Source of the DNA: a virus
Direction: 5' to 3' (one strand)
IMG/VR virus record: IMGVR_UViG_3300048833_000111
Coordinates: 32,218 to 96,217 of that record
Length of the DNA stretch: 64,000 nt
Shown here: one piece after another, positions 32,488-57,265 of the stretch
Position numbering within the stretch: the stretch's first letter is position 1
Layout: each line of letters starts with the position of its first letter
Made by a program: the position numbers and the translations under genes
The notes under the pieces: generated by a model
What the model was told of the DNA's origin: nothing
Database searches by the model: none
The model's input: the letters and a program-made list of their open reading frames with translations, nothing else

Positions 32488-34209
32488 ATGAAAAAGAAAA
32501 AGATAAAAGATTTACCTATATATCTGTTTGGAGGTAATACAGAAGACCCAATGCAATCTTATATGGATATAAGAAGGCAAAGAGCTTCACAAAACCCTGG
32601 TGTTATTGAAAATCCTAACACAGCTCTAATAGATAATCAAATAAGAATGGCTAGGGCAAACCAGAAAGCTAATAGTAATCCTTGGACACAAATTATGGAT
32701 ATGATAGGAGCTATGGCAATGTCTACAGGTAGTTCAATGATGTCACAAGGTATAGCACAAGCAGGTGGTATAGGAGGTTTATTTGGAGGAGGTGCTAATG
32801 CATCTTTTGATGGTATGACTGAAATGCCAATTGCAAGTGTAACTAGAGCTGCTATGGGTGGTAAAGTTGGTAATGCAATAAATGCAGAAGGAAAAGAAGT
32901 AATAGAAACTCCTGATGGAACTGTAGCAGAACTTAAAGGACCTTCACATTCACAAGGAGGTATAGATATGTTAGTACCACCTGGTACTGAAATATTCTCT
33001 CAAAGATTAAAAGGTCCAGATGGTAAGACTATGGCTGATAGAAAAAAAGCAAGAGAAAAGAAGTTAGCTAAAATAGAAAAACTCTTTGATAAGAATCAAA
33101 GTGATGCTACCTTAAAAGCTACTTTAAAAAGAACTCAAGATAACAACCAAAGAGAAGAAGATGCTGATATGCAACAAATGAATATAGCTAGAGCTATGAT
33201 GGAAGGTATGCAGCAAGTATTTGCTATGGGAGGTATTACTGGAGGCTATCAAGAACAATTGGATAATGTTGGACCAGACCCTAATAATCCATATGGACAT
33301 ATGTCTGATATAGAATTCTTATCACTTGCACAGAACTTTTTACAAATGAATCCACAACAAACTAGTTCTAAAACTCCTGAAACCAATTCAGAAGATGGAT
33401 TTGATTGGGGAAGTATTTTTGGTAATACAACTTTAGGTGATGGTATAGGAATGATAGGAAACTTAATTTCTACATTTGGACCAATGGAGAATACAAGAGC
33501 TAATAGAGCAGGGGACACTCCTAATATAAATGCATTTAAAGATTATGGTAAAGATGGATTGAAAGCTTTGGATAAATCTAAAGGGTATATTGCAGGACAG
33601 AGAGATGAGAACCTAAGAGATTTAGAACTTGCTAGAGCAGGTGCTATAGGTAGAAATAGAAATTCAGCTAGAGGTCTTAATACTATGAGAGCATTAGACC
33701 TTACAGTAGACAATGCTATTAGTGAAAGACAGCAAAGTGTATATAGTGCATATGCACAACAAATGATGAATATACTTGCTCAACAGGCTGGTATGGAAAA
33801 CCAACAAGATCAAGTAGTTATGCAAGGAGAGCAAAATAGAGATTTAGCTGATAGACAAGATAGAGATAATTACTTCTCTAACATGGCTCAAGATATTGCT
33901 ACTAAAGGAACTGGTATGCAGAAAATAGGTAAAGATGTAAATCAAATGAAGACTAGAAATGTTACTTCAAATATTATGTCTGAACTATATCCTAACTTTG
34001 AAATAAGCTCTATGACTGGTAAAACTAAGTTTAAAGCTGAAGAAGTTATTGAAAAGAATCCTACTTTCTACTCTAAAATAGTTGGTAATCCAAATGCAAA
34101 AGAAATTCATCAAGGTAATATGGAAGGTAAGTACATCATTAAAGATGATAAACTTTATAATAAGGAAGGTGTAGAATTAGATATAAATACTTTAAAACCA
34201 GTTAAGTAA
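32488..34209 (+). CDS. Ejected cargo protein 1
   Basis: EGKEVI..GPSHSQGG..IFS motif, Gly/Ala/Met-rich segments, no Cys. Confidence 0.7.
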   Translation: MKKKKIKDLPIYLFGGNTEDPMQSYMDIRRQRASQNPGVIENPNTALIDNQIRMARANQKANSNPWTQIMDMIGAMAMSTGSSMMSQGIAQAGGIGGLFGGGANASFDGMTEMPIASVTRAAMGGKVGNAINAEGKEVIETPDGTVAELKGPSHSQGGIDMLVPPGTEIFSQRLKGPDGKTMADRKKAREKKLAKIEKLFDKNQSDATLKATLKRTQDNNQREEDADMQQMNIARAMMEGMQQVFAMGGITGGYQEQLDNVGPDPNNPYGHMSDIEFLSLAQNFLQMNPQQTSSKTPETNSEDGFDWGSIFGNTTLGDGIGMIGNLISTFGPMENTRANRAGDTPNINAFKDYGKDGLKALDKSKGYIAGQRDENLRDLELARAGAIGRNRNSARGLNTMRALDLTVDNAISERQQSVYSAYAQQMMNILAQQAGMENQQDQVVMQGEQNRDLADRQDRDNYFSNMAQDIATKGTGMQKIGKDVNQMKTRNVTSNIMSELYPNFEISSMTGKTKFKAEEVIEKNPTFYSKIVGNPNAKEIHQGNMEGKYIIKDDKLYNKEGVELDINTLKPVK

Positions 34210-36410: not shown

Positions 36411-36413
36411 TAT

Positions 36414-39400
36414 ATGGAAGATGAAGAACTACAGGGAGTAGGTACTACAGAAGATATTAAAAAGCAAGAAGAGATACTTATGGCTAAAGCCAGAAGAAAA
36501 ACTCTAGAAAAGAATTTAGAGAATTCTATCTTTGGTACTAGCTCTGCTTCTATAAATTTTAAAGGTATAAATTATGCTTCAAGTGATTTTGCTGGTGGTT
36601 CTTATGGTAAGGCTGCTGAGCAAGGTGATTGGAGTAAATGGAGTATGCCAGATGATATGGCATATAAAGCATTTCAACAACAAGAGATTGGAGATTTAAT
36701 TATAGATACTTTAGCAGGAGGTTCTAAACTAGCTGTTGCTGGATTTTTAGATATGGCTGCATCTTGGGATTTAGCTGAAATCTCAAATGTAGCACAGGGA
36801 AATGCTATGGCTGAAACTGGAAACTGGTTACAACAACAAGCTGATAAATTACAATCTTCTGCACAACAAAAGAATACTATATACCAAGATGGTGATAATA
36901 TGTGGACTGCTGCATATTGGGCTAACCAAGGGCAACAGTTAGGTTACTCTACTGGTATTGTTGGAGAGATAGTAGCTGAACAAGCTATACTTGCTTTAGC
37001 TACTGGAGGGTCTGGAAATGCTGCTGGACTTGCATCTAAAGCTAGATTTTTAAAACCTCTACTTACACAAGGAGCTATGGGACTTGCTGGTGGTATGAGA
37101 GAGGCTTATATGAATGCTAGGGAAACACAAGAAAATGTGTACTCTAAGTTTATACAAAATGGATTTACAGAAGAAGAAGCAAAAGCAAAAGCTGATGAAG
37201 CTGCACATGTATCCTTTAAAACAGAAGCTGGTTCTCTTGTAGTATTAAACACACTTCAAAATATATTTCTATTTGGAGGAATGGGTAAAATCCAACCTTT
37301 TAATAGAGCAGCATCTCCACAACTTCAAATGGGATTCTCTTCTTTTGGAGAACAATTACTTGAAAAAGTATTACCTGAAACTACTTCTAAATTTGGAAAA
37401 AGGGCAATACAATATGGTCTTATACCTGCTGTTACAGAAGGTATGGAAGAAGGTGTACAAAGCTTATCACAACAATGGGGAGAATATTCTGTTGGGGATA
37501 AGAAAGAAAAGTTTGACCCTGTAAATACAGAACTTAGAGATAATGTTATTGGTGGTGCTTTAGGAGGAATACTTCTAGGTGCAGGTGCTAAAGCTATATC
37601 TAAATTTAATAACTATCTTGGTGACAATCAATTCTCCAAAGAATATAAGAATTTTATAGATACTGCTGTAGATAGAACAGCTAATACTTTTATAGAGCAA
37701 GAAAAAATTAAGAGAGAATATCAAGAAGCTCAAATAGCTTATAATAAAAATAAGACACAATCCAATCTAGAAGAACTTAATAGAGCAAAGCAGGCTGTTA
37801 AGCAAGCTAAGTATAATTCCCATTTAACAAATGCTGTAAATGCTTTACAGTATGATTATATTAAAGGGGAAGGTACTCAAGCTTTTGATGCACACATAGG
37901 TCAAATGCAAAGTGTACTTGATGCTGTAAAGAATAAGGATACAGAAGCTTTAAGAAAGCATGGTCTTATAATGGCTAATGGAAAAGAAAGATTTGCTGGT
38001 TCATTTGAAACCATTTTAAATACATTTGAGCAAAACATTAAAGATTCAGAATTTATAAAACAATCCCTAAGCAATAACTTAGAAAATGTTACTACTGATT
38101 TTGAATCTGCATTTGATATTACAAAAAAAGAATATACTAATTCAAAATACTTACAAGAGATTTCTGAATTAGAAGGGCAATTGGCTCAAGCACAAATGCT
38201 TGATACATATGTATCACAATTGTCTACTGATGGTAAAACAAGATTTAATCTAGAAAATGAATTAGCTGCTTTAGAACAGGTAGAGAATAATAAGGATACT
38301 AAAGGGTTATCCAAAGAGGACCAAAAAAGAAAGAAAGAGATAGAAAAAAAATTATCTGAACTTAAATATACAGATAGAGATAAGAAGATAATTCCCAATA
38401 CAAATAGAAAAGGTTATATTAATGCTGAGATAAGTAAAATTTCTTTAGGGCAAGCTATAGACCAAAATAATCTTGAGCTTAATTCTTTAAAAGATAGTAA
38501 TAAGATTACGGAGAAAATCAAAAATAGAGCTAAAGAGAAATTAAAAAAAGCTAAAACAAAAGATGCTATAACTAAGGCACAACAAGAGGCTGAACAAGCA
38601 GGGGTAGCTGATGAAAACTTTAATAAAGAAGTAGAAAATAAAGTTAAGGAAGTAGATAATAAAGATAAAATAGCTAATATAGATTCTACTGGACAAACTG
38701 TTTCTAGACCTGTACAAACAAAACCTAAAGAAAATTCCAAAGAGTCTGAACCAGATAGTGCTTCATTGTTTTCTGCTTTCTTAAAAGAAGGTAAAATATC
38801 TACTGCACCAAATCCAGAAGATGATATTATAAACCAAGCTTTCTCTAGACAGAGAATTCCAAATGAACAGATTACAGATGACCTAAAGGATAAGGCTAAT
38901 TTATTTGTAAAGAGAAAATCACAACAACTTGGTAAAGATGTAAATTTAGAAGATGTTATAGTTGACTCTATTGAAAGAAATGGTCTTAAAAATACAGAAG
39001 ATGTATTCCAAGGTATAGTAGCTTTAATGGAAACTGCTGGTAAGGATGTGTCTGAGGCTAATAGTTTATACTATAAATATTTTGAAGAGGATTATAATGT
39101 ATTTAAATCCTTTACAGTAGAGGAAGCTGATACTACAGTTAATACTGTAGAAAAACAAGCACAACAAAACACTGAATTTAAAGATAAGTTCAATGTTAAT
39201 GGACAACCTATATCTACACCTGTTGTAGAAAGAGATTATGAAGATACTAGAACCAATAAATCACAACCTAAAATTGCTTTTAATTTTCAGGAATATGAGA
39301 GAGATGGATTTATATTTACAATAACTTCTGATAAATTAAAAGGAGATAACCATTATATATTGGATTCTGAATTTGTAAATACAGGAGATATACTTACAGT

Positions 39401-42400
39401 TGAAGTTATTAATGATGACTCACAACCAATATCTTCATTTTCCCCAAATGGTACAGTAACAACAAGTACTTGGGGAGAATACAAAAAGACTGTTGAACCT
39501 AATTCACAAGCCTATATAAATAAAATACCTATGGGTATTTATAAAAAAGTAGGGGATACTAAAGTATTGGTAGGACATGTACATGATGCTACTTGGTATA
39601 TACCTAATAATATAAGTGAGGTAAATGGTAAAGAGGAACAGGAAAGAATTGCTAAAGAAGGGTATAATAATACTGTTGAGGTAAGAAAAGCCATTCTAGA
39701 GAATGGTGGTACTGGTAGTATAGAAATAAGTAGACAGTTTGGAGCTTTAGATAAAATAAATAAATCTAAGGATACTACACCTATATCTATTGCCAAAGCT
39801 ACAGGAGAAACTATTTTAGCTAGAATTGTAGAAGGTAATGCTGGTACTATACACTTAGAGACTCAAAAAGGAATACCATTAGATGTAGTATTGGAAGGAG
39901 ATTTACAGGCTACCAATAATGGTAAAAGAATATTTAATCCAGGAGGTATTGCAGATGTAAGATATGCTTATACTAGACCTGATGGAACTAAAGTGTATAT
40001 GGCTCTTCCTGTTATGCAGAAGAAATCCAATGCTTCAAATGCATTAAGAGAGGATTTAAATCCTACTATATTTAATAGTTTAAAATATGCAACATTAGCT
40101 AATATTGTTCTTAACAACACTAACAACAGTGATGTATTAAAAGAAATTGAGAAAGAATTTGCCTTTACAGTTGCTGATGCAAAAGATATACAATCTAAAA
40201 TAAACTCTAGTTTAAAAGTAGATATAAAAAATAATTTAACAGGATACATGGAGTTCTTTGTAAGAATGTCCAATGGTTCTATAGTACTTGATGATAAAAG
40301 AAAACCATCTATAAAAGACTTACAAAATGAATATAATATTGGTAAGTTCAAATATTTATTTGGAGACAATGGAGTTATACTAAAATCTAGTTTTAATGTA
40401 AACTATAATAAACTTAATGCAAGTACACTAAAAGATGTATACATACCTACTATTAATGAGCAAGGAAAAGTAGAAGAAAAATTTAAAGGTTACAATGACT
40501 TAGTAAAAAATAACACATTTACAAATGTTAGAAGCCATCAAATAACAAAGCATGATGGTTCTAAGCAATGGATTATTGATGTACATCCCTTAATTACATA
40601 TACTCTCACAGATAATATAAGTACTGGTATCAGTTCTGCACAAAGAGCTGTTGAAGAAGTATCACAAGAAATGGAAAATAATACTTCTTTAAATATACCT
40701 AAGGAAGTATTGGATACTATGAGTGATGAAGATATAGCACTTTTAGAATCTTTAAATAGAACTATGAACCAAAATAATTCATTTAGTTCAAGAAGAATTT
40801 TAAGTGAGGGTGAGGTTTCAAATATAAATAATACAATAGTAGATGGTAGAATAGAGTTACTTACTGATTTAGAATTTAGAGAAATGTTAGATTCTTTAAA
40901 ACATAGATTTATAAGTAATTTAGATTTCAATGGTAGTATAACTGTAAACCAAATTAAAACTAATTTAGAAAATCTAGTTGAAAAAGAAATACAGCCTATT
41001 ATAGATACATATAAAGAAAGATATGAGAGATTTTCTAAAATTCCTTCATTGGAACCTTTCGCAAAGGAGTTACAATCTAGAATAGATAAACTTCAATCTA
41101 GTATTGACCAAAAAGAAAAGATTACTGGAAACAATGGAGTTCTTTTAAAAGAGCTTAATAAGTTATTTGGATTTAATTTAGAAGAAGAATATAGTGGTGA
41201 GGAAGAATTTGATTCAAGTAATAATTTTAGAAAGTCCTTTTTAGAGAAAGATATAAAACTATCTTATAGTAATAAGTTAAGAATGTCTTTCTTTGGTGTC
41301 AAACAACTTAAAGATAGTTCAAACCAAGAGGTTATAAATGACCTTACAGGATTACCTGTATATGAAAGTCCAGATTATGTAGAACTTATACTTAAATCTA
41401 TTACAACTGAGATTCCATCTAATTGGAATACTCTAATGGATAAATTACAAACTAAATATAATCAGACCAATAAACCTATATATAATCAGTTAAGGAACAA
41501 TTTAAAAGATTTACCACAGAATCTTAAGAATGAATTACTATACAAATTAATATCATCTAGATTTACAGCCCATAAGATTATAAACTCTGTACAAAAAGGT
41601 AAAGGAGGTAATCCTGATAGATATGTATTGACTGTAATTGATGAGAATAGCTCCAAGGAAAATATAAAATTAAAGAAACAAACTAGAGATAATTTTAAAT
41701 TTGCATCCCCACTAACTATGGTGGATGTTAAAACTAATGAGAAAATACTTAATCTAGAGCAAGCTTTAAAATACCAATTAGCTTTTAAGAAGCATATAAA
41801 AGAGGATACTTTTAAGAATGGTTATACAAAAGAGAATGCTACTTTATTAAAAAGTATCTTCAATGCTATAGGTTTGAATTTATCTGATAATACTATAAAA
41901 GAATACTTACAATATAATGACCCTTTTAATAATACTAAAGGTTTATTATCTTTTGTTAGTAAGCAATTAGACAAATTAATAAGTAAGGCTAAACATAATA
42001 AAGTTGTAGTGACAGATGAGGGTAATAATTTATTTGATACTGCAAACAAAGCTTTAAATGATATTATAGAACTTGAAATAGCTCTTAATGGTACAAATGT
42101 AGCTAAATCTATTAGAGTAGGTGGTAAAACATTACAAGGTGTTATACAAAATACATCTGCTTATGATACACTTAGAGAACTTGTAGAGCAGGATTCACAA
42201 TTATTGGATAAACTATTATCTATAGGTTATACTAAAGATAGTTTATTATTAAATCAATTGAGAGAAAATCCACAAATTGCAGATATACTTTCTCTATCTT
42301 TTAGCTCTCCTGATAGTTATAAGGTAAATGGTAAAAAGAATTATTCTGATACAGAATATGATAAACTATCTGATACAGATGGTCTTATCTCTATGTTAGG

Positions 42401-45400: not shown

Positions 45401-48400
45401 TACACTTGAAGCACAGATGCAAAGATTAAGTGAGGATAATAAACTTCAATTAAGACATACAGAAAGAGATGAGGATGGTAATATTAGATATGTACCTACA
45501 GTTGAGATTATAGGTCCATTAGTATCTGATAGTAACCTAGGTGCATCTGAAGAATTTAAATCTATAGATGGTAGAAGGGATATAGCAGACCAACATGGTG
45601 AGAACCAAAACGTATCTACAGATAACATTAATGAACAAATTATGTCCAAAAGGAATGAAAACTCTTATACTATGAGTGTATATGCACTTATGGCTACTAG
45701 AGGGTTTGACCTTTCTGAGGATAATGTTGTTCAGAATAATAATAAACCAATGCACATACCTTCTCTATTTATAAATCAACCTATAATTAGAGATTATGTG
45801 AAAATGAAATCACAACAAGACTCTATATCTGGAGAGTTTATTGCAGATAAGGATAGTGATATATTAAATAGATTAGTTAGAAAATATGGAGGGAGTATAG
45901 CTCCTGGAGCTACTATAAGTAATTTCTTAAATGATTCAGTATATATGGAAGGCTCTAGGCAAATGACTGGACAAGCTTTATATGACAGTTTATCTGAAGA
46001 AATAGCTCTTAAGAATAATACAATGCAGTTAGCTGTATTACAAAAATTTGCTAAATTTAGAAATGAGTCTAGACAACTTTCTGAAATACAACAATTAATA
46101 TCTTTATCTACTTCAGGTTTAGGTGTATCTTATTTTGAGACATTACAAAGAATAAAAATGTTGGATAATTTACCATTTTCTGATATAAAGAATGCATATA
46201 AACTAATAGGTGATTTCCAACCTTCTGCTGAATTCTTAGGTATACAACCAGATGAAGAAATAAAATCAAATTCTCAATTGGAGAGAGAAGGTTATACTAA
46301 AATAGGTAATTTCCATTGGAAACCAGAGACTATTGAAGGGGTAATGCTTATAGATTCTTTAAAAGCAGCACAAGATTTAATGGATATATTTTTTCCATAT
46401 AAAGATGCTGCTATTGATGGAGTTATAGAAAAGATTACTTCTGAGAAAGATATTGATTTATCTAAAAAATCTAGAACTGTATTAGAACAACAATATGAAA
46501 TAATGAGAGAGTTAAAATCTTTCATGAATACATATAAGAATGCACAATATTTTAAAGGAGATGTTAATGAAGAGAGAAGAAGATTATTTATAGATAGTGA
46601 AAATAATACTTCACTAGCTAGTATTGTAAAAGATATCCAAGATAAGAAGTTACCTCTATCAAATAATCCTTTTATTAGAAATCTTACTCCACAAATTCAA
46701 GCTATTACAGAACCTTCTTTACTATTATATAATAATACAGATAGTACATCTTTAGATAGTTACACTGAGTATGATGCATTTAGAAGATTGTTACTTGATG
46801 ATACAACTGTACTTGGAGAATATAATGGAGAAAGTATAACACCAAGAAAACTGGCACAGGATTTAGTTTCTTATACTATGTTAGCTGATTCACAGAATGG
46901 AGCTACTGGATTTGATACTTTAGTACCTATAAAATATTTACAGATTATAGGTTATAATACAGCAATTAATAATAATTATGCAACAGTCAAGAATAATCCT
47001 GATATGTTGAATAACTTTATAGAGCAGTATTTCCAACATAATCCAGAAAGAACTAATATATTAAGTTCTAGTACTATTGACCCTAGAGATATACTTACTA
47101 ATGATGAGGATATAAATAAAAAATTAGAAGCTCTTGCAGTTAAGAAAGAAGCTGGAGAACAAGTTAATCTAAACTTCCTTTTACAGGAATTAAAATCTTT
47201 TGCAATAGTAGATAATACAAAGTTTGGCAATTATGTAGCTATCAGAAATCCTAAAATAAATAATTCTGACAATAAGTTTAACTTGTTCAAGTATAATCCA
47301 GAGACAACTATGTATGAGCAAATACCTACTCTGGGAACCACTGGTATGAAAGAATACAATGCAGAAGTATTCCAACAAAGTTCAATACTTCCAGTATTAG
47401 AACCTGTAACTAAAACTAACAAAGCTAACAAATACTTTGATTTAGGTAATCAGGCATATACTGCAATACCAGAGATTCAAGCTATGTTACCTGCTAATAA
47501 AGGAGTAAGAGGTATTTTAGAAATATATCAAAATTCTGCTAATACTGATGATAAGACTAAAGAGTTTATTTCAAACTTACTTGAATATGGAGATTTAGAT
47601 GCTAAAATAGTTTATACAGCTCCAGCAAATTCTGCATTGGGACAATACAATGTTGACACTAATGAGATTTATATACATCCAGATATCTTTGATAAATTAT
47701 TATCTAATAATCCTAACTTAAGTGAAGTTAGAAATGTAGTAAGGGAAGTATTACTTGAAGAGGTAATACATTCTATGACTGTAAAGGAATTTAATAAGTA
47801 TGTAAAATCATATAATCCAACAACTGGAGAGATAACTTTAGTAGATAATCCACCATTATTTGCTACAAAATTAGTATCTTTGTACCAAGCAGCTAAAGAA
47901 TCTTTACCTTATAATCCAAGTAATAATACTTCATATTATTCTAAAAATATATATGAGTTTATGGCTGGAATGTTTGTAGCTGAAGATTATAGAAAAGCAC
48001 TTGAAGAAGCTAATCCTGGAATTGTACAGAAATTCTTGGAAGTTTTGAGAGATATGCTTGGTAATTTATATAAATCTGTAACTGGTAGAATTTTATCTTA
48101 TCAAGATGAAACATTCAATGCAGTTTATGATTTATTAAAAGCTAGAAATGTAAAGAGTAATGTTGCTTTTGTGAATGTATTTAATAATAATCCTATGGAC
48201 CAAATGATAGAGAAAGAGAGTATTCCAGAGTATGTACCCACTAAAAGTAGAAAGGTACTTAACGATGTAGATATAGCTAGATTTAATTCTTATTTGGAAA
48301 AAAGTAATAATTTACTGCCTGATACATTCTTTACATCAGATTCTACTTTTACAGAGTTTTATAATCCTGTAACAGGTAAAAAAGAAAAAGCACCACAGGA

Positions 48401-48572
48401 AAGTATATGGATTAAAACACAATATAATTTATATAATTTAACAGACCAAGAAACAGGTGAAATATATATTTCAAATGTAAATTTATCTACAGGATATGTA
48501 GATTTAGATATACCTAATTCAGAAGATATATTGTCTAGAAATAGATTACCTGAAATTAAAAATTGTAAATAA
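36414..48572 (+). CDS. Virion-packaged DNA-dependent RNA polymerase polyprotein (crAss-type, double-psi beta-barrel)
   Basis: FRIPTSSHQS and GEDYDIDK (DxDxD at 44976..44990); N-terminal Gly/Ala hydrophobic helices; C-terminal zincin-like domain. Confidence 0.9.
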   Translation: MEDEELQGVGTTEDIKKQEEILMAKARRKTLEKNLENSIFGTSSASINFKGINYASSDFAGGSYGKAAEQGDWSKWSMPDDMAYKAFQQQEIGDLIIDTLAGGSKLAVAGFLDMAASWDLAEISNVAQGNAMAETGNWLQQQADKLQSSAQQKNTIYQDGDNMWTAAYWANQGQQLGYSTGIVGEIVAEQAILALATGGSGNAAGLASKARFLKPLLTQGAMGLAGGMREAYMNARETQENVYSKFIQNGFTEEEAKAKADEAAHVSFKTEAGSLVVLNTLQNIFLFGGMGKIQPFNRAASPQLQMGFSSFGEQLLEKVLPETTSKFGKRAIQYGLIPAVTEGMEEGVQSLSQQWGEYSVGDKKEKFDPVNTELRDNVIGGALGGILLGAGAKAISKFNNYLGDNQFSKEYKNFIDTAVDRTANTFIEQEKIKREYQEAQIAYNKNKTQSNLEELNRAKQAVKQAKYNSHLTNAVNALQYDYIKGEGTQAFDAHIGQMQSVLDAVKNKDTEALRKHGLIMANGKERFAGSFETILNTFEQNIKDSEFIKQSLSNNLENVTTDFESAFDITKKEYTNSKYLQEISELEGQLAQAQMLDTYVSQLSTDGKTRFNLENELAALEQVENNKDTKGLSKEDQKRKKEIEKKLSELKYTDRDKKIIPNTNRKGYINAEISKISLGQAIDQNNLELNSLKDSNKITEKIKNRAKEKLKKAKTKDAITKAQQEAEQAGVADENFNKEVENKVKEVDNKDKIANIDSTGQTVSRPVQTKPKENSKESEPDSASLFSAFLKEGKISTAPNPEDDIINQAFSRQRIPNEQITDDLKDKANLFVKRKSQQLGKDVNLEDVIVDSIERNGLKNTEDVFQGIVALMETAGKDVSEANSLYYKYFEEDYNVFKSFTVEEADTTVNTVEKQAQQNTEFKDKFNVNGQPISTPVVERDYEDTRTNKSQPKIAFNFQEYERDGFIFTITSDKLKGDNHYILDSEFVNTGDILTVEVINDDSQPISSFSPNGTVTTSTWGEYKKTVEPNSQAYINKIPMGIYKKVGDTKVLVGHVHDATWYIPNNISEVNGKEEQERIAKEGYNNTVEVRKAILENGGTGSIEISRQFGALDKINKSKDTTPISIAKATGETILARIVEGNAGTIHLETQKGIPLDVVLEGDLQATNNGKRIFNPGGIADVRYAYTRPDGTKVYMALPVMQKKSNASNALREDLNPTIFNSLKYATLANIVLNNTNNSDVLKEIEKEFAFTVADAKDIQSKINSSLKVDIKNNLTGYMEFFVRMSNGSIVLDDKRKPSIKDLQNEYNIGKFKYLFGDNGVILKSSFNVNYNKLNASTLKDVYIPTINEQGKVEEKFKGYNDLVKNNTFTNVRSHQITKHDGSKQWIIDVHPLITYTLTDNISTGISSAQRAVEEVSQEMENNTSLNIPKEVLDTMSDEDIALLESLNRTMNQNNSFSSRRILSEGEVSNINNTIVDGRIELLTDLEFREMLDSLKHRFISNLDFNGSITVNQIKTNLENLVEKEIQPIIDTYKERYERFSKIPSLEPFAKELQSRIDKLQSSIDQKEKITGNNGVLLKELNKLFGFNLEEEYSGEEEFDSSNNFRKSFLEKDIKLSYSNKLRMSFFGVKQLKDSSNQEVINDLTGLPVYESPDYVELILKSITTEIPSNWNTLMDKLQTKYNQTNKPIYNQLRNNLKDLPQNLKNELLYKLISSRFTAHKIINSVQKGKGGNPDRYVLTVIDENSSKENIKLKKQTRDNFKFASPLTMVDVKTNEKILNLEQALKYQLAFKKHIKEDTFKNGYTKENATLLKSIFNAIGLNLSDNTIKEYLQYNDPFNNTKGLLSFVSKQLDKLISKAKHNKVVVTDEGNNLFDTANKALNDIIELEIALNGTNVAKSIRVGGKTLQGVIQNTSAYDTLRELVEQDSQLLDKLLSIGYTKDSLLLNQLRENPQIADILSLSFSSPDSYKVNGKKNYSDTEYDKLSDTDGLISMLGLYTNERGNVTLNNANDIRLGLSFRVGQMPFMTLSDKGRMLYMKTIMLDGKDEQFVSKGETIEISDDIMDLLFQQVFESEYNRILDAYSNEDPHIKSFSEGSKIFTFLPIFNTLKVDGVNIHDILKERIKNGEALPSISTFRGEAIKMLSEYINSEVNQKLDANGNGIITDSNLYVDGKLLNIDTKYLSKFEGTPLVKGRKLFAEHAVNNLLHQVSLYQIFLGDLAYYTKFKGVIDADGFVKSDVIEQEYLNIAETIGQVVDKRSASLIAPGFTLANASDTENKNSKYMQLQILDVNSISSIIEPLIKASKDELSKEELNALEVIKNPNSTKQQILSAYEVLEENNEELSAYFNIEGTDAQEYNTWKTHIDILFRQGNLTGEERDLLSSVYTKLSEGKFDEVTKEETKVVMQPIKPVYTGMVPLYNKEGKVISMRPVYIKSSSFPLLPHITKNLKIDNLRKNLEALEESSGMTVKASYQTANKIGANKTMLTTDDLYNKTFEELSQEVRDGRSVLESATLMLDTKNFKIQQETPDKVAKYLAKNKDNEISMGSQFWKVILGNGINKMTDKIFPNKFNKDLLDLVGIENTEMLSGEDLDKINFYVFNNFSKAKSTLLYSRLGLDRNIPFANLTKEEKKTALENVINILKEEVTSRNYPEYLTESLNLVTDEQGNVSLESPIFLDSNANKFESLLLSLVANSIIFHKLPGLGHISTSSEGFERVSNLEELSSTDRQGIVWFDKPTGRLKSTMLDDNTISESEVLIKSHFRRTRKDENGNKVTELIDFTSDTYSEAIIEDGKVVGRKLKLDMMDEELLSQFSFRIPTSSHQSGVILKVVGFLPPEAGDMLLVPAEHTVQLGEDYDIDKRYIYKSNYIFDGDRITKLDYKKDLRDKNEFDRLYEALLGDDVQESDKDLKIRIKMYENAMIDIYKSVFQSPSKAVQQKIFKPLSVGVAKETAFLMDSKLNEDKQPYFSTLSDTYQRKLLKAGADGKGGIGVHSNAVTLEAQMQRLSEDNKLQLRHTERDEDGNIRYVPTVEIIGPLVSDSNLGASEEFKSIDGRRDIADQHGENQNVSTDNINEQIMSKRNENSYTMSVYALMATRGFDLSEDNVVQNNNKPMHIPSLFINQPIIRDYVKMKSQQDSISGEFIADKDSDILNRLVRKYGGSIAPGATISNFLNDSVYMEGSRQMTGQALYDSLSEEIALKNNTMQLAVLQKFAKFRNESRQLSEIQQLISLSTSGLGVSYFETLQRIKMLDNLPFSDIKNAYKLIGDFQPSAEFLGIQPDEEIKSNSQLEREGYTKIGNFHWKPETIEGVMLIDSLKAAQDLMDIFFPYKDAAIDGVIEKITSEKDIDLSKKSRTVLEQQYEIMRELKSFMNTYKNAQYFKGDVNEERRRLFIDSENNTSLASIVKDIQDKKLPLSNNPFIRNLTPQIQAITEPSLLLYNNTDSTSLDSYTEYDAFRRLLLDDTTVLGEYNGESITPRKLAQDLVSYTMLADSQNGATGFDTLVPIKYLQIIGYNTAINNNYATVKNNPDMLNNFIEQYFQHNPERTNILSSSTIDPRDILTNDEDINKKLEALAVKKEAGEQVNLNFLLQELKSFAIVDNTKFGNYVAIRNPKINNSDNKFNLFKYNPETTMYEQIPTLGTTGMKEYNAEVFQQSSILPVLEPVTKTNKANKYFDLGNQAYTAIPEIQAMLPANKGVRGILEIYQNSANTDDKTKEFISNLLEYGDLDAKIVYTAPANSALGQYNVDTNEIYIHPDIFDKLLSNNPNLSEVRNVVREVLLEEVIHSMTVKEFNKYVKSYNPTTGEITLVDNPPLFATKLVSLYQAAKESLPYNPSNNTSYYSKNIYEFMAGMFVAEDYRKALEEANPGIVQKFLEVLRDMLGNLYKSVTGRILSYQDETFNAVYDLLKARNVKSNVAFVNVFNNNPMDQMIEKESIPEYVPTKSRKVLNDVDIARFNSYLEKSNNLLPDTFFTSDSTFTEFYNPVTGKKEKAPQESIWIKTQYNLYNLTDQETGEIYISNVNLSTGYVDLDIPNSEDILSRNRLPEIKNCK

Positions 48573-51500
48573 TGGCTTGTACAGTTAATACAAAAGATAT
48601 ACAAAGAGAAGTGAAACAACAATTCTTAAACCTAGATGGAGTTAGACCAACTCCATCTGGTGTATTTGAAAACTTTTCACATAACAATCCTGATAGTATG
48701 AGTACTAAGTTTAGTGATAAGATTAAAGAGCTTAGACAAACTTATCAGGAAAATACCTATGGAAAAATGCTAACTGTTAGTACAGAACAATATGGTACTA
48801 GAGTAGATATTAATCCTACACAAGCTTTAGCTGATGCTATGACAGCACAAAATGAAGCTGATGAAAAAATTACACAAAGAGCAGAAGCTAGTAATATACA
48901 AAGAGCTGATGCACAAAGAGCTGGAGTACAATATGAAGATGATTACTTATTTGATTCTAGAAGAGTAGATTATACTCTTAAGGCTGTTAATATATTATCT
49001 ACTCCTAAAGCTGAAGAAATTTTTAAAAGAGGGGATAAAAATAATTGGACTTTAGATAAAATTCTTACAGAACTTCAAGTACCTAAAGAACAAAAACAGT
49101 TAATAGTAAGTAAAAGATTAACTAATAGAGAAGAAATAATTACATCTTTATTAGGTGATAATAGTTTTGTTGTTGAGATAAATATTAGTAAAAGGTTTAA
49201 AACTGCATTAGATAGAAAAGAAAGTCTCGTTTTAGATGAGTATGGAAATGCTGTAATGAGTAATAGTAATGAGGAAATAAACTCTGACTTCTACTCAAAT
49301 CTAACAGTTCCAGGAGGTACTAATTATACAGAAAATGAAATAGCTACACCAGCTATTACTCCTTCTATTAAAGGACATGCACAGTTTAGTACAGATAATG
49401 GCATTGGATGGTTTAGAAGTGATGAAAAAGTAACTGTAAAAACAAACGATTCTAATACTTGGTATATAGTAAATCCTGAATTGGGAATACAAGAATTTAA
49501 CTCAAAAGAAGAAGCTGAAGAAGCTATTAAACAAAGTGGTTGGGGTAATGCTGTTGTAACTAACGATTTAAGTAATGATGGATTAATAAGTGGTTCTAAA
49601 ACTCGTAGAATACTTGAAGTACAATCTGATTTATTTCAGAAAGGTAGAGATAGAAAAAACTTAGTTAATTCTAAAATACCTACAGGAGAACTAGAAACTA
49701 TAGATTTTGATGATGACGGTAGACCTTTACCTTCTCCAATAATGAAGGATAATTTAAATTATGAAAGAGGTAATCAATTCCTACAACTTTTAAATAAAGA
49801 TAATAACTGGGTAACATTCTTTGTTAAATCTATTATTCAAGATAGCTCCAAAAAAGGTTATGAAAAAGTACTATTTCCTAAAGGAGATACTGCTGCTAAG
49901 ATAGAAGGACATCAAACTTTAGAAGAATTTAAGAAACAGAAAGAAAGTAGAATTAAAGAACTTGAAGAAGATATTAAAAATATTAATGTTCTTCTTGATA
50001 AAAAAGTTGATGCAATTGGAAATCCTTTTGAAGAAGGTCAACAACAAGGTTATGAAAATAAAATTATTCAAAAGAATAATGAAATAAACCAACTTAAACA
50101 AGAACTTGAAAGAGTAGATACTGAAGGATTTGCTGCTTTAAAACCTATTTATAATTTCTATGAAAATACTGTAGCTAATATTCTTAAAAAGAATTATGAT
50201 ATAACAGAAATTACTGATAAATATGGTAATAAGTGGAATGAAGTAGATTTATCTCAAGAACAAAATCAATCTTCAGAAATATTTTTATCTAGAAGAAACA
50301 GTAATCCTTCAAATAATATACAACCTCAAGGAAATAACTATGTAGAATTTGTAAGATACAAAAAAGAGAGACTTGAAAGTATAAATAATGAATTGGGTAG
50401 ATTAAACTTTACTTTAAAGAATAGTAACTTAGGAAGTAATATAGATGTTGTAGAGATTAATAATAGAATAAAAGCTTTAGAAAAAGAAAGTTCTATTATA
50501 TCTAGACAATTGGAGGCTTTATCCAAAGATGAGTCTAAGTATATGTTCCATGCGATAGAAGAAGATTTAAATAACTTAGAAAAAGTACTTGACTCAAATA
50601 ATATATTTGATATAAATAAAGTAAATTCTAGATTAGATTTCTTAGAGGAATTTATATCTGGAACTAACAAAGAATTCAAAGGACAGCCTTTGTCTGAATA
50701 TAATAATCCTGCTTTTGGTGTTATTGCTGGTAAGATTAAGGAACTACAGGTAAAAGCTACCCAAAGGATAATGGAAGTATCTAGAAATAGTATTGAAAAT
50801 TCTTCTTTGGTACAGAACTTAGTTTCTGAGAATCCTGACTTAGATACAGATAACTTATTTCAGGCACAGAAAGATTTAAACTGGTTGGAAACTTGGACTT
50901 TAGGTGTAACAGCAGATAGAACAAACAATACTGTCATACCTCAAGCTTTATACGCATTACTTAGAAACACTTTAACTAGAAAACAATCTACAGTTGAATC
51001 TTGGAATAAACAATTAAAGGCTTTAGTGGATGCAAATCCTGACCTTAAGAATCCTGATTTTATAAAAGAGAAGGATTCCTCAGGAAATGAAACTGGCTTT
51101 ATTGTAAATCTATTTAGTCCTGCATACTATAAAGCAATGGTTAAGTATAAGAAACTAATAGATAACTTTATAAGTGACTCTAATCAAGAAAATTATAATA
51201 AAGTTGTTACTGAACTTTTACAACATAATAATGTAATTGATTTTACAAGAATACAAGCTGTAAAAGATTTATATGGAAGTACATATCCAGATTACTTTAC
51301 TTCTAGTGAAGAAAATATGGATAAGTATGAAGAATCTTTAAGAAAAGGTCTAGGTCCAAAATATGATGAAGTAATAAATCAAATACTTAATAGGCTAGCT
51401 CTATTTGAAGAAAAGAAAATAGATGCCCTAAGTGAGGGTGGACAGTATGTATCAAGAGATTTGGCATCACAAGATATTTGGAAATTTAATGAAATAATGA

Positions 51501-54382
51501 AAAGTCCAAACAAATATTCTAAAGTAGCTTATTCTCATGAGGGACAAATATATGGAGTATTATTCAAAGACTTTAATAATGTAACATTCCTTCCCAAAGA
51601 AACTATTTCCAAGGAAGTAATGACAGATGAAGGACCTATACTATTAAAAGAGAATACAGGATATTATAATGAAGCTTTTAAAGATATAGCAAATTCTCCA
51701 AGTAAATTGGAGTATTGGAATCTTATCAAAAAAATGTCAGAATACATCTCATCTACTTATGATGCACAAACATATGGTAGATTATCATATCCAAAGATAC
51801 AAAAAGAGTATGCTGAGAGATTACAGGAAGGTTTAAAAGATAAAAATATTGGTTCTATTATAACTAATTCAGCTAAGGAATATAAGTCTTGGTTTTATGA
51901 AAGAGGTAGATTTAAAGATGGTAAAACTATTGCTCCAAACTATGTAGAAAGTTTTGAATCAGATGTAAAAAAGTTAGCTAGAACTTATATATTACAAGGT
52001 ATAGATAGAGAAGATGCTTACACAAAAGCTAGAAAAGAAATATTAGATACATATTCAGATGATTTTAATTCCAATATGATTGCTGTAGCTATGGAAGCTG
52101 CACTACATGATGCTAGATTAGAGGTACAACCTATGTCTGAAGCATATATAAAATATTTTAAATCTATTGGACCTGAGAGAGAGAATGCTATAAAAAAGCT
52201 TGAACACTTTTATGAGAAAATAATACTTAATACAAATGAAAAATATAGAGACTCTGGAAAAACAGAAGGAAAGGGTCTCTCAGAAGGTACTTGGTTAAAT
52301 AGAATGTTAGCTTTAATGCAAAAAGTACCATATTTGAATAGAATTATAAATGAAAAGAGTACATACCTACTGTCTGATGCAGAAGCTAAAATCTTTGAAC
52401 AATTAAAATTAATTCAAAAAGAAGGGAGGACATCTGCTGATTATAGCTTCTCATTGGATGGTATTACATATATACAAAAGAAAGGGAGAACTTATGAATC
52501 TATGGGAGAAAATGTACAGGAAATATCCCAAGAGTATTTTCAAGAGAATTTTGAACTGCACATACAAGAAGAAATAAATAAGTTAGGTTTAGATTTAAAC
52601 TTAGCTGGAGGTATAAATGGTATACTAAAGACTATTATATTTAAAGGATTAGCACTTAATCCTATATCTGGTATATTTAACAGAATAGAGGGTAAACATT
52701 CAGCTATGATTATGGATGCTACTGGAGAGTATTGGACTACAGGAAATATAGATGTAGCTAATAATCTTATGAGTTTTGCAAATATAACTAGACTATCTAA
52801 AGGTAGATTGAGTCCTGTAATGGCAAAGAGAAAAGAAACATTACAGATATTTGATACTCTTATGAAGCAATTTAATATATTGCAAGATAGGAAAAATGAA
52901 TTACAGAGAAGTGCTGAAGAGGCTAAGTTTGATAGAGAACTTTTAAACCCATATATGTTTGCTGTAGAGAATCCTGAATATAAAAACCAGGGAGCTATTA
53001 TTATGGCAGTTCTTATGGATAAAAAAGTAACTGATGTAAATGGTAATGTAGTACCTCTTTTAAATAAAGAAACTGGAGAGTTTACTATATATACATTAAA
53101 CAATGGAAGACTTGAATTAAAACCTGAGTTTCAAACACCAGAAAATATAGAAGCATACCAAAAATTCAAAGGTACTACTATACAGAATCTAGTACTTAAG
53201 ATGACAGATGCTGTATCTAGGTCACAGGGTAACTATGATTCATTGGATATAATGATGGCTAAAAAATCTATATGGGGTAGAGCTGCTACTTTGTTTATGA
53301 CTTGGTTTGCAGAACATATTAACCAAAGGTTTGGAGTATCTGGAGATAAAAATTATAACTTAAATACAGGTAAGAAGAGAAGACATGGTAGATTTATAGA
53401 AGCTTATAAAAGCAATAAACTTAATACTATGATAGGAGCAGTTACTGGTCTTACAGTATCTTATGGATTAGGTGGACCTCTATTGCTTGCAATGGGTGTA
53501 GGTGGACTTGGATTTATGGTATATAAGAAATTTGTAGGTAATATAGCTGGACCAAAAGCTATTAAAAGGGATATAAATTATGCTATGGAATTATTAGAAT
53601 TTACTAAATCTTTAATGATAGAATCTTTAAATTATCCAGGTAGAATATTAAATATAAATAGCAAACTTAAAATAAATAATAATTCTTTTGAAGGTACTAA
53701 TATGTCAAAAGATGAAATAGCTGCAATGAGAGCCTTAACAAGAGAGTTGGCTATTGTACTTACTTGGTTAGGTGTAAAGCTAGCTATGGGAGCTTTATTG
53801 TATGATGATGATGATGATAAAGAATCTCCACAAAGGATGAAACATAATTTTATACAGAACCAATTATCCAGAGCTATTAATGCACTTACTATATATTCAA
53901 ATCCACAGGAATTAATATCTGACCAGTCTAGAATGGCAGCATTAGAAACTTTATCTTCTGCTGGAAAAGTACTTATGGCAGCATTTAATGAAAAGCAAAG
54001 AGAGGATTTAGGAAAGAACTTTTTAGATTTAACTCCAATACCTAGAATACTTGTTAAAGGTAGAATGCCATATCATGATAAAATGAACTATGATGAAATG
54101 TCAAATTTCTCAGGTATACCATCTCCTATGAAATGGACATCTGAATTCTTTAAAAACTATAGTGCAGGTCCTGAAAGACAAGCTGAAAAAGACTATAAAA
54201 AAATATTGAAGGAATTAAGAAAAGATTTGAAAGAAGAATATATGTCCAAGCATAAAGGTAAGAAAGCACCACTTAAAGATGAATTAGATGCCTTGATTAA
54301 AGAAAAGATAAGTGGTTATAAAAAGAAGGAACAAACTTATCAGGAGAAATTAAAACAAGTGGAGAGTCTAGATTTAGATTAA
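48572..54382 (+). CDS. Large ejected cargo/polyvalent protein
   Basis: 1936 aa; N-terminal GGTNY.E...H..F...WFR...LEVQSD domain; hydrophobic helices near C-terminus. Confidence 0.7.
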   Translation: MACTVNTKDIQREVKQQFLNLDGVRPTPSGVFENFSHNNPDSMSTKFSDKIKELRQTYQENTYGKMLTVSTEQYGTRVDINPTQALADAMTAQNEADEKITQRAEASNIQRADAQRAGVQYEDDYLFDSRRVDYTLKAVNILSTPKAEEIFKRGDKNNWTLDKILTELQVPKEQKQLIVSKRLTNREEIITSLLGDNSFVVEINISKRFKTALDRKESLVLDEYGNAVMSNSNEEINSDFYSNLTVPGGTNYTENEIATPAITPSIKGHAQFSTDNGIGWFRSDEKVTVKTNDSNTWYIVNPELGIQEFNSKEEAEEAIKQSGWGNAVVTNDLSNDGLISGSKTRRILEVQSDLFQKGRDRKNLVNSKIPTGELETIDFDDDGRPLPSPIMKDNLNYERGNQFLQLLNKDNNWVTFFVKSIIQDSSKKGYEKVLFPKGDTAAKIEGHQTLEEFKKQKESRIKELEEDIKNINVLLDKKVDAIGNPFEEGQQQGYENKIIQKNNEINQLKQELERVDTEGFAALKPIYNFYENTVANILKKNYDITEITDKYGNKWNEVDLSQEQNQSSEIFLSRRNSNPSNNIQPQGNNYVEFVRYKKERLESINNELGRLNFTLKNSNLGSNIDVVEINNRIKALEKESSIISRQLEALSKDESKYMFHAIEEDLNNLEKVLDSNNIFDINKVNSRLDFLEEFISGTNKEFKGQPLSEYNNPAFGVIAGKIKELQVKATQRIMEVSRNSIENSSLVQNLVSENPDLDTDNLFQAQKDLNWLETWTLGVTADRTNNTVIPQALYALLRNTLTRKQSTVESWNKQLKALVDANPDLKNPDFIKEKDSSGNETGFIVNLFSPAYYKAMVKYKKLIDNFISDSNQENYNKVVTELLQHNNVIDFTRIQAVKDLYGSTYPDYFTSSEENMDKYEESLRKGLGPKYDEVINQILNRLALFEEKKIDALSEGGQYVSRDLASQDIWKFNEIMKSPNKYSKVAYSHEGQIYGVLFKDFNNVTFLPKETISKEVMTDEGPILLKENTGYYNEAFKDIANSPSKLEYWNLIKKMSEYISSTYDAQTYGRLSYPKIQKEYAERLQEGLKDKNIGSIITNSAKEYKSWFYERGRFKDGKTIAPNYVESFESDVKKLARTYILQGIDREDAYTKARKEILDTYSDDFNSNMIAVAMEAALHDARLEVQPMSEAYIKYFKSIGPERENAIKKLEHFYEKIILNTNEKYRDSGKTEGKGLSEGTWLNRMLALMQKVPYLNRIINEKSTYLLSDAEAKIFEQLKLIQKEGRTSADYSFSLDGITYIQKKGRTYESMGENVQEISQEYFQENFELHIQEEINKLGLDLNLAGGINGILKTIIFKGLALNPISGIFNRIEGKHSAMIMDATGEYWTTGNIDVANNLMSFANITRLSKGRLSPVMAKRKETLQIFDTLMKQFNILQDRKNELQRSAEEAKFDRELLNPYMFAVENPEYKNQGAIIMAVLMDKKVTDVNGNVVPLLNKETGEFTIYTLNNGRLELKPEFQTPENIEAYQKFKGTTIQNLVLKMTDAVSRSQGNYDSLDIMMAKKSIWGRAATLFMTWFAEHINQRFGVSGDKNYNLNTGKKRRHGRFIEAYKSNKLNTMIGAVTGLTVSYGLGGPLLLAMGVGGLGFMVYKKFVGNIAGPKAIKRDINYAMELLEFTKSLMIESLNYPGRILNINSKLKINNNSFEGTNMSKDEIAAMRALTRELAIVLTWLGVKLAMGALLYDDDDDKESPQRMKHNFIQNQLSRAINALTIYSNPQELISDQSRMAALETLSSAGKVLMAAFNEKQREDLGKNFLDLTPIPRILVKGRMPYHDKMNYDEMSNFSGIPSPMKWTSEFFKNYSAGPERQAEKDYKKILKELRKDLKEEYMSKHKGKKAPLKDELDALIKEKISGYKKKEQTYQEKLKQVESLDLD

Positions 54383-54676: not shown

Positions 54677-56218
54677 TTAAATTCTGGTCTCACCAAGTCT
54701 TTGTCTTATTTCTGTTAATGTTGTTTGATTATAATATTCACCATCTTCAAATATGGTTTGTAAAGCTCCTCCTTTTTCTTCCTCCCAAGTACATTGGTCT
54801 TTAAGTTGATATCTACCATCATGCTTTACATCAAACTTTTGAACTCTAAGTAAACCTTTAGCAGATTTTTTAGTACCATCATCTGTAATAGGGTCTTTAA
54901 ATATTTCTCTACCTATTATATTAGGTCTAGCATCAGCTCTTGTAGGATTTATAACACCTTCTTGAACTTCGACATAAGTAGCCTTCATTGCAAATCCAAA
55001 AGTATCTCTTGTATTATATTGGTAGGTAAATGAACCTATACCAAGTATAATATTAGTAGATGCAAATCCTTTAGCTTCTAATCTTTTACATATTTGTTCA
55101 GCTCTCTCTAAAGTAATACTATCTCCATAAATTGCACCAATATGAGGGTCTAATACTTTATAACCTTGTTTATTGATTGTTCCACCAAATATATCCCAAA
55201 GTAATTGAATTACTCCTTTTTCTTCAGGATTTTCTAAATTTTCATAGAAATTATCAATTACTGAAGCACTATCCATATAATCTGGTCCACAAATAATATC
55301 TACTGGGTCTCCACTATCAGGTCTAATTACAATTCTACCATCTCTTGCAAGAATTTCTTCTTTAAGTTCAGGTAAGTACTTAGTAATTACAGTCCATAAA
55401 TCCCAAGTATCTGATACAATTGATAATATACCTGTTGGAAATTGTTTCATAAGATATCTAAATGTACCTAATTCATCTCCTTTAGTTCCTGCACATATTA
55501 CAGAATGTTCAGTAGCATTTACAGAGCCTATAACAAACTCTTTCTCCCCATAGTACTTTCTTGCACCATAGATTACTGGAAGACTGTCAGAACCTTTAAA
55601 TGAAGTTGTATGACCTAATCCTGAGCTTATAGTAGCATTAACACTATCCATACCTCTCATAGAGAAATCATGTCCTTGAAATTCTACAAAACCTATATTC
55701 TCTTTATCAGTCTTTTCAGCCCAACTCATTAAATTCTTTTTGTATTGATGAGCTATTGTAGCAGATGTCATTGGCTTCCATAATAAATTAGAGATTAATA
55801 CCTCAAGGAAATTAGTAAGCCAATAAAATTCTGATTTAGTATTATATATAGTAAGTACAGGAACTCCCATTGGGACAAGTGTACCTTCTGGAATAGCTTT
55901 AATCTTAATAGGTAAATAACCTAATTCATGTAGAGCTTTTATATGTGAAACATCATAATCTTCATCTAAGTAAAGTGAATATTCTTTTTTAATTTCATAA
56001 AGAATTCTAGCTTGATTTTTTGAAAAGAAATGTTCATCAAACATCTCTTTAATCTGTTGTACTACCATCTGTTGTCCAAATGATACTACTTTATCACACC
56101 CTTTTGGTGCATATTTATTACTTCTTGGAGTAAAGTTAGAATATACCAAAGTAGTACCTTGTGGATACTGTCTATGATGTCCTACTTTATAACCATCTGT
56201 TGCTAAAAATGGATTCAT
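54677..56218 (-). CDS. Nicotinamide phosphoribosyltransferase-family enzyme (Namat-like)
   Basis: TDGYKVGH, HDFSMRG, ATEHS, SIVSDTWD, RPDSGDP, IYGDSIT, RDTFGFAMKAT. Confidence 0.92.
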   Translation of the reverse strand: MNPFLATDGYKVGHHRQYPQGTTLVYSNFTPRSNKYAPKGCDKVVSFGQQMVVQQIKEMFDEHFFSKNQARILYEIKKEYSLYLDEDYDVSHIKALHELGYLPIKIKAIPEGTLVPMGVPVLTIYNTKSEFYWLTNFLEVLISNLLWKPMTSATIAHQYKKNLMSWAEKTDKENIGFVEFQGHDFSMRGMDSVNATISSGLGHTTSFKGSDSLPVIYGARKYYGEKEFVIGSVNATEHSVICAGTKGDELGTFRYLMKQFPTGILSIVSDTWDLWTVITKYLPELKEEILARDGRIVIRPDSGDPVDIICGPDYMDSASVIDNFYENLENPEEKGVIQLLWDIFGGTINKQGYKVLDPHIGAIYGDSITLERAEQICKRLEAKGFASTNIILGIGSFTYQYNTRDTFGFAMKATYVEVQEGVINPTRADARPNIIGREIFKDPITDDGTKKSAKGLLRVQKFDVKHDGRYQLKDQCTWEEEKGGALQTIFEDGEYYNQTTLTEIRQRLGETRI

Positions 56219-57124: not shown

Positions 57125-57265
57125 TTACTCATTTTCTTGATTCTCATTACAATGACAAGGACATTTACAAGTACATTGTTTTCTTTTTAGATTGAACTCA
57201 TAGTCATCTGAAACCTCTAGGTCTTTCCTAGGTCCTTTTCCCCAACTTGATTGAAATAATCCCAT
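57125..57265 (-). CDS. 46-aa peptide with CxCxCxCxC cluster (not in ORF track)
   Basis: MGLFQSSWEKG...KQCTCKCPCHCNENQENE*; fills the gap exactly. Confidence 0.55.
   Translation of the reverse strand: MGLFQSSWGKGPRKDLEVSDDYEFNLKRKQCTCKCPCHCNENQENE

Follow-up and report, generated by a model that had tools for sequence, protein, structure and literature searches.

Paired terminal cysteines at gene breaks in the virion RNA polymerase module of crAss-like phages point to a possible end-to-end link between its pieces

In crAss-like phages, a virion RNA polymerase (RNAP) and its giant companion proteins are encoded in a shared gene order of muzzle protein, two smaller proteins and giants, the latter being represented by g067-g066-g065 in phi14:2 (gp078/077/076 in GenBank), gp47/gp50/gp49 in crAss001 and gp33/gp34 in Fpv1. 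The phi14:2 gp66 polymerase transcribes early genes and, thus, must enter with the DNA, and the authors of that study noted that the three phi14:2 proteins are one polyprotein in some phages (10.1101/2020.03.07.982082). In crAss001, gp45, gp46, gp47, gp49 and gp50 were detected in virions by mass spectrometry, the cargo proteins are thought to exit through the tail partly unfolded, and inter-subunit disulfides are present in the virions (PMC10172136). Here, we describe the cargo block of a 64,000-nucleotide stretch of viral DNA (IMG/VR record IMGVR_UViG_3300048833_000111, positions 32,218 to 96,217; hereafter, the window), in which two giant proteins, A (4052 amino acids, aa) and B (1936 aa), each contain a single cysteine (Cys), located at the termini that meet at the gene junction. 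By sequence comparison, A and B represent two parts of the RNAP module that crAss-like phages package in the virion, which is encoded by one, two, three or more genes depending on the phage. Virion packaging and delivery have been shown for the relatives phi14:2 and crAss001, and A and B are probably injected by this crAss-like phage as well.

Suppression of Cys is known from the ejection proteins of the Schitoviridae, N4 gp50 and DEV gp71, gp72 and gp73, where it was attributed to the crossing of an oxidising periplasm; no terminal Cys is conserved in these proteins, and their few Cys were judged to be annotation errors (PMC11445570). A first-pass annotation of the window had cited the N4 virion RNAP as lacking Cys, and this literature documents its Cys suppression. 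Like the Schitoviridae proteins, the giant virion RNAP of the window and its companions are nearly Cys-free, far under the proteome background; unlike them, the window family retains one conserved Cys per broken end. The same terminal pattern is found in the phi14:2, crAss001 and Fpv1 blocks. Full-text searching of the literature brought up no account of terminal Cys pairs in crAss-like cargo proteins, and neither the crAss001 structure paper (PMC10172136) nor the phi14:2 preprint (10.1101/2020.03.07.982082) mentions cysteines or a link in these proteins.

The cargo block comprises four consecutive plus-strand open reading frames (ORFs; 32488-54382; 7,294 aa), which contain only two Cys in total, as the first-pass annotation had claimed and as a count confirmed. 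The sole Cys of A (36414..48572) is its penultimate residue, 4051 of 4052 (C-terminus ..LPEIKNCK; codon 48564-48566, within the tail motif RLPEIKNCK at 48543..48569), and the sole Cys of B (48572..54382), the final gene of the block, is residue 3 (N-terminus MACTVNTK; codon 48578-48580). The stop of A and the start of B overlap by one base as TAATG, with nothing between the genes; these positions, too, agree with what had been noted. The remaining 39 ORFs of the window contain 1.34% Cys, a frequency at which 97.6 would be expected in 7,294 aa (Poisson P(<=2) ~2e-39). Mutation supply is not limiting, and the depletion reflects selection on protein, because TGY codons abound in the two other frames (6-49 and 28-210 per gene) and are scarce in frame (0, 0, 1 and 1 in the four genes). 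For two Cys placed at random, the probability of facing each other at one of the three junctions, each no more than 3 residues away, is ~1e-6. The accompanying description of the structural proteins as Cys-rich was overstated, as ~1% is typical of them and only a few small ones reach 3-14%. Neither the junction between the 573-aa and 733-aa proteins nor that between the 733-aa protein and A has a Cys pair, in the window or in relatives. Because only the A|B junction has one, the four cargo proteins are not all chained, and the 573-aa and 733-aa proteins are no part of a Cys-linked pair; head-to-tail chaining of all four is, thus, unsupported. In contrast to phi14:2 and crAss001, the pre-RNAP part and the RNAP are fused in the 4052-aa protein A, and for this reason the window has one break rather than two.

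Relatives were collected by scanning viral contigs with the N-terminal part of B (the conserved B-domain, residues ~126-585, 48947..50326, served as the query), which yielded 61 loci at 35-67% identity; in what follows, L and P numbers denote viral-contig loci and database proteins, respectively. At nearly all 61 loci, the upstream protein ends in Cys plus 0-5 residues and the downstream protein begins M-x(1-4)-C, and over broken modules in general the upstream end is Cys followed by 0-8 residues and the downstream start M-x(0-4)-C. A Cys at residue 2-6 is present in 116 of the 120 best database homologues of B, with 22 Cys outside the head position (0.0086%). A Cys lies in the last 7 residues of 46/48 A homologues (2,300-5,300 aa), which have 10 Cys elsewhere among 205,181 residues (0.0049%). 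Over the homologue sets, inner Cys frequency ranges from 0.005 to 0.014%. When sequences were clustered at 50% identity, 55/58 head and 26/28 tail clusters retained the Cys. C4051 is one of ~120 invariant columns of A (alignment A1), and B has only 9 such columns (15 sequences), C3 among them. Among the nearest relatives, the tail motif R-[LY]-P-E-I-K-[KN]-C-(K) is shared by P0121, P0123-P0129, P0139-P0143, P0158, P0163 and Fpv1 gp33. Co-conservation of terminal Cys and MxC starts had been proposed as a check on the idea, and the pair proved to be conserved on both sides.

The distribution of the Cys also follows the position of a piece within its module: first pieces have a tail Cys only, last pieces a head Cys only and middle pieces both, and the outer ends of the module are Cys-free. 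Thus, 46 of the 48 A homologues are first pieces, with a head Cys in 0/46, while the two that do have one are middle pieces; a tail Cys is found in only 9/120 B homologues. Furthermore, tail similarity and head similarity are correlated over 49 non-redundant junctions (r=0.87; partial r=0.80 when the adjoining protein bodies are controlled for), a covariation that fits cognate docking pairs or portable cassettes, with the caveat that relatedness inflates such figures. Searches of GenBank phages by blastn and tblastn with the junction region and with B gave no match, the GenBank relatives surfacing only with crAss001 gp50 as the query, and a search for related loci with the C-terminal 600 aa of A likewise gave no match.

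The cultured crAss-like phages display the pattern with different numbers of pieces. The closest of them, Flavobacterium phage Fpv1 (genus Fipvunavirus), in which the order gp31, gp32, gp33, gp34 is conserved, has no middle piece; the single Cys of gp33 is residue 4400 of 4401 (..RLPEIKNCN), and gp34 begins MACTVEIQDIQ. In phi14:2, the sole Cys of gp078 is its last residue, gp077 contains exactly C3 and C2179 of 2180, and gp076 has C3 only. The crAss001 proteins contain only C2339 of 2341 in gp47, C5, C1334 and C2404 of 2412 in gp50, and only C5 in gp49; the terminal Cys of gp50 and gp49 lie in the tryptic peptides ICGANTLYEL (C-terminus of gp50) and CAIIPQVR (N-terminus of gp49). DAC15 has C2220 of 2222 in gp078, C5 and C2265 (the last residue) plus three inner Cys in gp076, and C4 plus one inner Cys in gp077. 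The p-crAssphage module is without a middle piece, with gp45 ending ..SFSCM and gp44 beginning MSC. In crAss002 (L066, NC_055828, 17088-17190), gp32 ends ..SFVCS and the annotated gp33 has MSC at residues 33-35, followed by typical head sequence; because this fits the head pattern, the start of gp33 was probably called 32 codons too early. As crAss001 gp47 is encoded on the strand opposite to gp50 and gp49, the Cys pattern cannot stem from a shared gene junction.

Comparison of fused and split relatives indicated that the pair follows the break. In L061, the RNAP and B-domain are in the window order within one 4,477-residue frame that contains no Cys. The RNAP-then-B-domain fusions P0172, P0173, P0199, P0218, P0237, P0247 and P0266 have no Cys at the equivalent of the window junction and instead have a tail Cys at their own end, after the B-domain; L007, L023 and L055 behave likewise. 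L028 is split at a site where L023 runs on without a Cys; the L023 pair sits further on. P0110 (3,242 aa, fused, no Cys) and P0022 (split, with a head Cys) are 73% identical in an alignment that begins only past the first 51 residues of P0022. A itself is continuous and Cys-free at the site of the phi14:2 gp078|gp077 split. Among 99 longer giants, inner Cys frequency is 0.014%. For the window's own A|B junction, no close fused relative was found. The earlier suggestion that the two Cys are kept by selection as a facing pair is upheld by the cluster counts, the cultured relatives and the fused forms without the pair, and on these comparisons the terminal Cys pair is real, selected and general.

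Side observations were made on the composition of these giants. A conserved domain resembling YbiA/NADAR (DUF1768) lies just before the break in L028 (4300-5386) and at residues 1688-1827 of the first ORF of L023, and among the database relatives of A and B are proteins with effector-like domains of several kinds (RecD-like helicase, AlkB-like, zeta-toxin kinase, ART). Because of these varied effector-like domains, the giants look like polyvalent injected proteins.

Splitting of a phage gene by a mobile endonuclease has a described precedent in Aeromonas phage Aeh1, in which nrdA-a / mobE / nrdA-b constitute a homing-endonuclease-split gene with element-derived tails that are needed for assembly and activity (Crona et al. 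2011, PMC3045599). The extra breaks of nine relatives (L041, L043-L045, L050-L052, L057, L060) hold an ORF of 161-261 aa, and a GIY-YIG domain was matched in 6/6 of those scanned against Pfam. The unsplit L013 and split L045 are 85% identical, and the L045 cassette consists of ~29 added residues ending ..GLLKIKCD, the endonuclease gene and ~34 added residues starting MACKYTYNG, none of which is present in L013. The strict head motif (CKYxYKGxxY) is found at N-termini only in the 61 loci, apart from two unrelated internal matches, and a search for a contiguous ancestor of this head gave only loose hairpin-like matches inside database proteins, which were uninformative. From these comparisons, we infer that some breaks in the relatives were created by GIY-YIG homing-endonuclease cassettes, which brought their own Cys-ended tail and Cys-started head. 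As in Aeh1, an endonuclease gene lies between the halves, the added tail and head are absent from unsplit homologues, and no intron or intein is present; the cassette ORFs abut, leaving no room for a group I ribozyme, and a group I intron was rejected on this ground. Aeh1 differs in having an HNH endonuclease and charge-complementary tails without a role for Cys, whereas the relatives have GIY-YIG enzymes and recurring Cys-tipped families. Unlike Aeh1, the A|B junction of the window holds no endonuclease gene. A free-standing GIY-YIG gene of the same kind as those in the Cys-tipped breaks of the relatives is present elsewhere in the window, outside of the cargo block (1887-2633, minus strand; 248 aa, with a helix-turn-helix like that of sigma-70 region 4).

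The A|B pair points to an end-to-end link that would join the pieces. It is reasonably likely, judging from the comparative evidence, that a tether, in the simplest case a disulfide, connects tail to head and lets the split pieces act as a single chain. The A tail would dock on the B head and the thiols of the two Cys would be linked directly, in the simplest chemistry by an interchain disulfide made in the virion. A and B would be packaged one-to-one and act as a near-linear chain in which the link replaces the missing peptide bond. Because both Cys are at the extreme ends, the joint would be almost without a side branch and could traverse a narrow tail channel partly unfolded; terminal placement makes sense for such passage, while mere stability of a complex would not require it. 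The reducing cytoplasm would then open the link and free the RNAP from its partner. Disulfide chemistry is available to these phages, as the inter-subunit disulfides of crAss001 virions show; Bayfield et al. analysed virion samples both reduced and untreated. In AB-type toxins, an interchain disulfide holds the chains together outside of the cell and during translocation and is reduced in the cytosol. The proposed tether would work alike, but there is no sequence relation; the toxin chains arise by proteolytic nicking of one precursor and their disulfide is not at the chain ends, whereas the window chains are encoded by separate genes and would be joined at their ends. A complex prediction with A 3760-4052 and B 1-300, supplied as alignments, gave a median of 0.26 against a mark of 0.32, which speaks neither for nor against the tether, and a Pfam scan of 20 further window ORFs found no thioredoxin or thiol oxidase gene. 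As a more tentative extension, the Cys tail and head may constitute a portable, redox-reversible substitute for a peptide bond that selfish GIY-YIG cassettes bring into the giant ejected proteins, so that the module, whatever its number of genes, would travel through the tail as a disulfide-stitched thread and be cut by host thiol reductases into active enzymes.

Several observations weigh against the tether. The Cys is missing from 4/120 heads and 2/48 tails, the conservation counts overstate independence because the homologues are phylogenetically related, and the starts of the database proteins are the choices of gene callers. Cys avoidance is not absolute, as inner Cys occur in crAss001 gp50 (C1334), DAC15 gp076 (three) and p-crAssphage gp44 (seven). 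Furthermore, p-crAssphage gp47 ends ..QSCR while gp46 has no Cys, leaving this tail Cys unpaired. In L035, L052 and L057, the tail-position Cys lies ~63-66 residues before the C-terminus, and a gene for a 594-783-aa CxxC protein lies between it and the next head; in L026, the inserted CxxC gene is present but no such Cys is found near the end of the upstream piece. Finally, virions assemble in a reducing cytoplasm and the habitat of gut crassviruses is anoxic; a disulfide would have to form late.

The CxxC proteins are themselves a family (L035:2297-4297, L057:3578-5929, L052:1704-3488 and L026:9164-11323) with a start of M.(K/R)NI.VEAE.. and the CxxC at residues 42-45. They had no family match save a weak peptidoglycan-binding match in one protein. 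In L035, L052 and L057, the CxxC gene occupies the place of the GIY-YIG gene of other loci.

All of the comparative evidence would fit nearly as well if tail and head docked as cognate peptides and the thiols shared a metal ion (Zn, Fe or Cu) or just lay packed in the interface, with no disulfide formed; a metal link had also been named in the first-pass annotation. Assembly in the reducing cytoplasm would permit a metal bridge but not easily a disulfide. However, each end offers a single Cys, with no His, Asp or further Cys conserved near it in tails or heads, two-ligand sites are weak, and the sequence context of the Cys changes greatly from family to family, as would suit a bare disulfide better than a shaped metal site. 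We regard this alternative as unlikely. A little less likely still is that each terminal Cys binds some other partner, whether a Cys-bearing virion protein (for example, portal, muzzle or ring) or another copy of itself, or that it undergoes a thiol modification such as acylation that is used after ejection. Crassvirus tail and ring proteins are Cys-rich and form inter-subunit disulfides, and the unpaired tail of p-crAssphage gp47 would be accommodated. Against such a partner, the number of Cys ends tracks the number of breaks, the outer ends of the module are Cys-free, and tail and head families covary strongly, none of which would be expected.

Protein trans-splicing of A to B is highly improbable, as is a role of the bases themselves in translation or endonuclease recognition. 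The free-standing homing endonuclease between the halves in relatives does recall the 'fractured genes' that have split inteins. As criteria for a split intein, we took an N-intein of ~100 aa (<=25 only in atypical cases) with Cys or Ser at the extein border and a C-intein ending His-Asn followed by Cys, Ser or Thr. The window leaves one residue beyond the tail Cys and two ahead of the head Cys, so that intein halves cannot fit, and the cassette peptides of ~29 and 34 aa have their Cys at free ends rather than extein borders and have no terminal His-Asn. Pfam detected no Hint or intein match in A or B, and fused relatives are Cys-free at the joint, where splicing would leave one Cys. The window junction, a coupled TAATG overlap, would be compatible with a role of the nucleotides. 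However, the junctions use both TGT and TGC, the distance from Cys to protein end varies, and neighbouring genes may overlap by as many as 14 bases (20 if the longest-ORF start is called) or be separated by as many as 22; because of the codon mixture, the variable spacing and the opposite-strand partners of crAss001, a nucleotide signal is excluded and the constraint is placed at the protein level. Chance or relaxed selection, by which Cys was purged inside the proteins and tolerated at floppy termini, has a negligible claim: although termini are often disordered and tolerant of substitution, tolerance predicts ~1% per position and ~7% of heads against 97% found, and so is already contradicted by the conservation counts, the outer module ends should also have Cys but are without, and C3 and C4051 never change, unlike the residues around them.

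The identity of the genes in the block was assessed by similarity. Upstream lies a 1783-aa muzzle-like virion protein (27106..32457, plus strand; phrog_15100 over its full length; 19 Cys, 1.07%), residues 1173-1313 of which match the crAss001 muzzle protein gp44 (BLASTP, E=2e-7) and which starts the crAss-type order muzzle, C1, C2, RNAP proteins. The 573-aa protein (32488..34209; phrog_15413; 0 Cys) occupies the position of cargo protein 1 and is 49% identical to Fpv1 gp31, likewise with 0 Cys. Other cargo-1-like proteins have Cys pairs 8-9 residues apart, at 390/398 in crAss001 gp45 (L062), 369/378 in phi14:2 gp080 (L064) and both 211/219 and 273/281 in DAC15 gp080 (L065), whereas the 573-aa protein has none. 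In the position of cargo protein 2, the 733-aa protein (34209..36410; 0 Cys) had a weak match to Fpv1 gp32 (0 Cys) and no Pfam or PHROG family match. A (phrog_16227) consists of a ~1,390-residue N-terminal part followed by the virion RNAP. Its residues 2344-2868 align with 952-1374 of phi14:2 gp077 (gp66 RNAP), up to the DFDID motif (BLASTP, E=1e-17), and the catalytic motif DYDID at A residues 2855-2859 (44976..44990) is the counterpart of DFDID 1361-1365 of phi14:2 gp66 (10.1101/2020.03.07.982082), with D2855, D2857 and D2859 invariant across 22 aligned A sequences. A is 28% identical to Fpv1 gp33, annotated as a virion structural protein, across ~2,100 aligned positions. B (phrog_14721) matches crAss001 gp49 at residues 1360-1611 (BLASTP). 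The position of the B-domain varies between phages, before or after the RNAP, and its AlphaFold2 model (alignment A3) was poor, with a predicted local distance difference test (pLDDT) of 59.9 and a predicted template modelling score (pTM) of 0.29, so that its fold was not resolved. PDB sequence searches with A and with B gave no match, and a Pfam scan of the four cargo ORFs gave nothing credible.

Elsewhere in the window, PHROG matches of crAss type were obtained for the terminase, portal and major head protein (phrog_6681, phrog_6547 and phrog_11589), and one tail gene matches Pfam CrAss_Ring_2 (PF25702, E=1e-38), its ring-2 product containing 3.4% Cys. A 153-aa protein encoded among the structural genes (17820-18281, plus strand) has 21 Cys (13.7%) and no Pfam or PHROG family match. 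A LAGLIDADG endonuclease gene (58043-58639, minus strand; Pfam E=2e-31), the second mobile endonuclease of the window, overlaps the start of a metallophosphatase gene (57265-58071). Directly after the cargo block are a nicotinamide phosphoribosyltransferase gene (54677-56218, minus strand) and a gene resembling phosphoribosyltransferase or phosphoribosyl pyrophosphate (PRPP) synthetase (58862-59686, minus strand); these two look like a nicotinamide adenine dinucleotide (NAD) salvage set, as phages use against NAD-depleting defence.

If conserved, the tether between A-like and B-like proteins would explain the fixed-ratio packing and ordered exit of separately encoded pieces, as well as the freedom with which the module has been fused, split and shuffled in evolution. 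It would also explain how the polymerase could stay inactive until it reaches the cytoplasm. Furthermore, it would be a new answer to how mobile endonucleases split essential genes without killing their carrier, and the Cys-tipped tail and head, if they do act in this way, would represent a third way, beside introns and inteins, of making gene fragmentation harmless.

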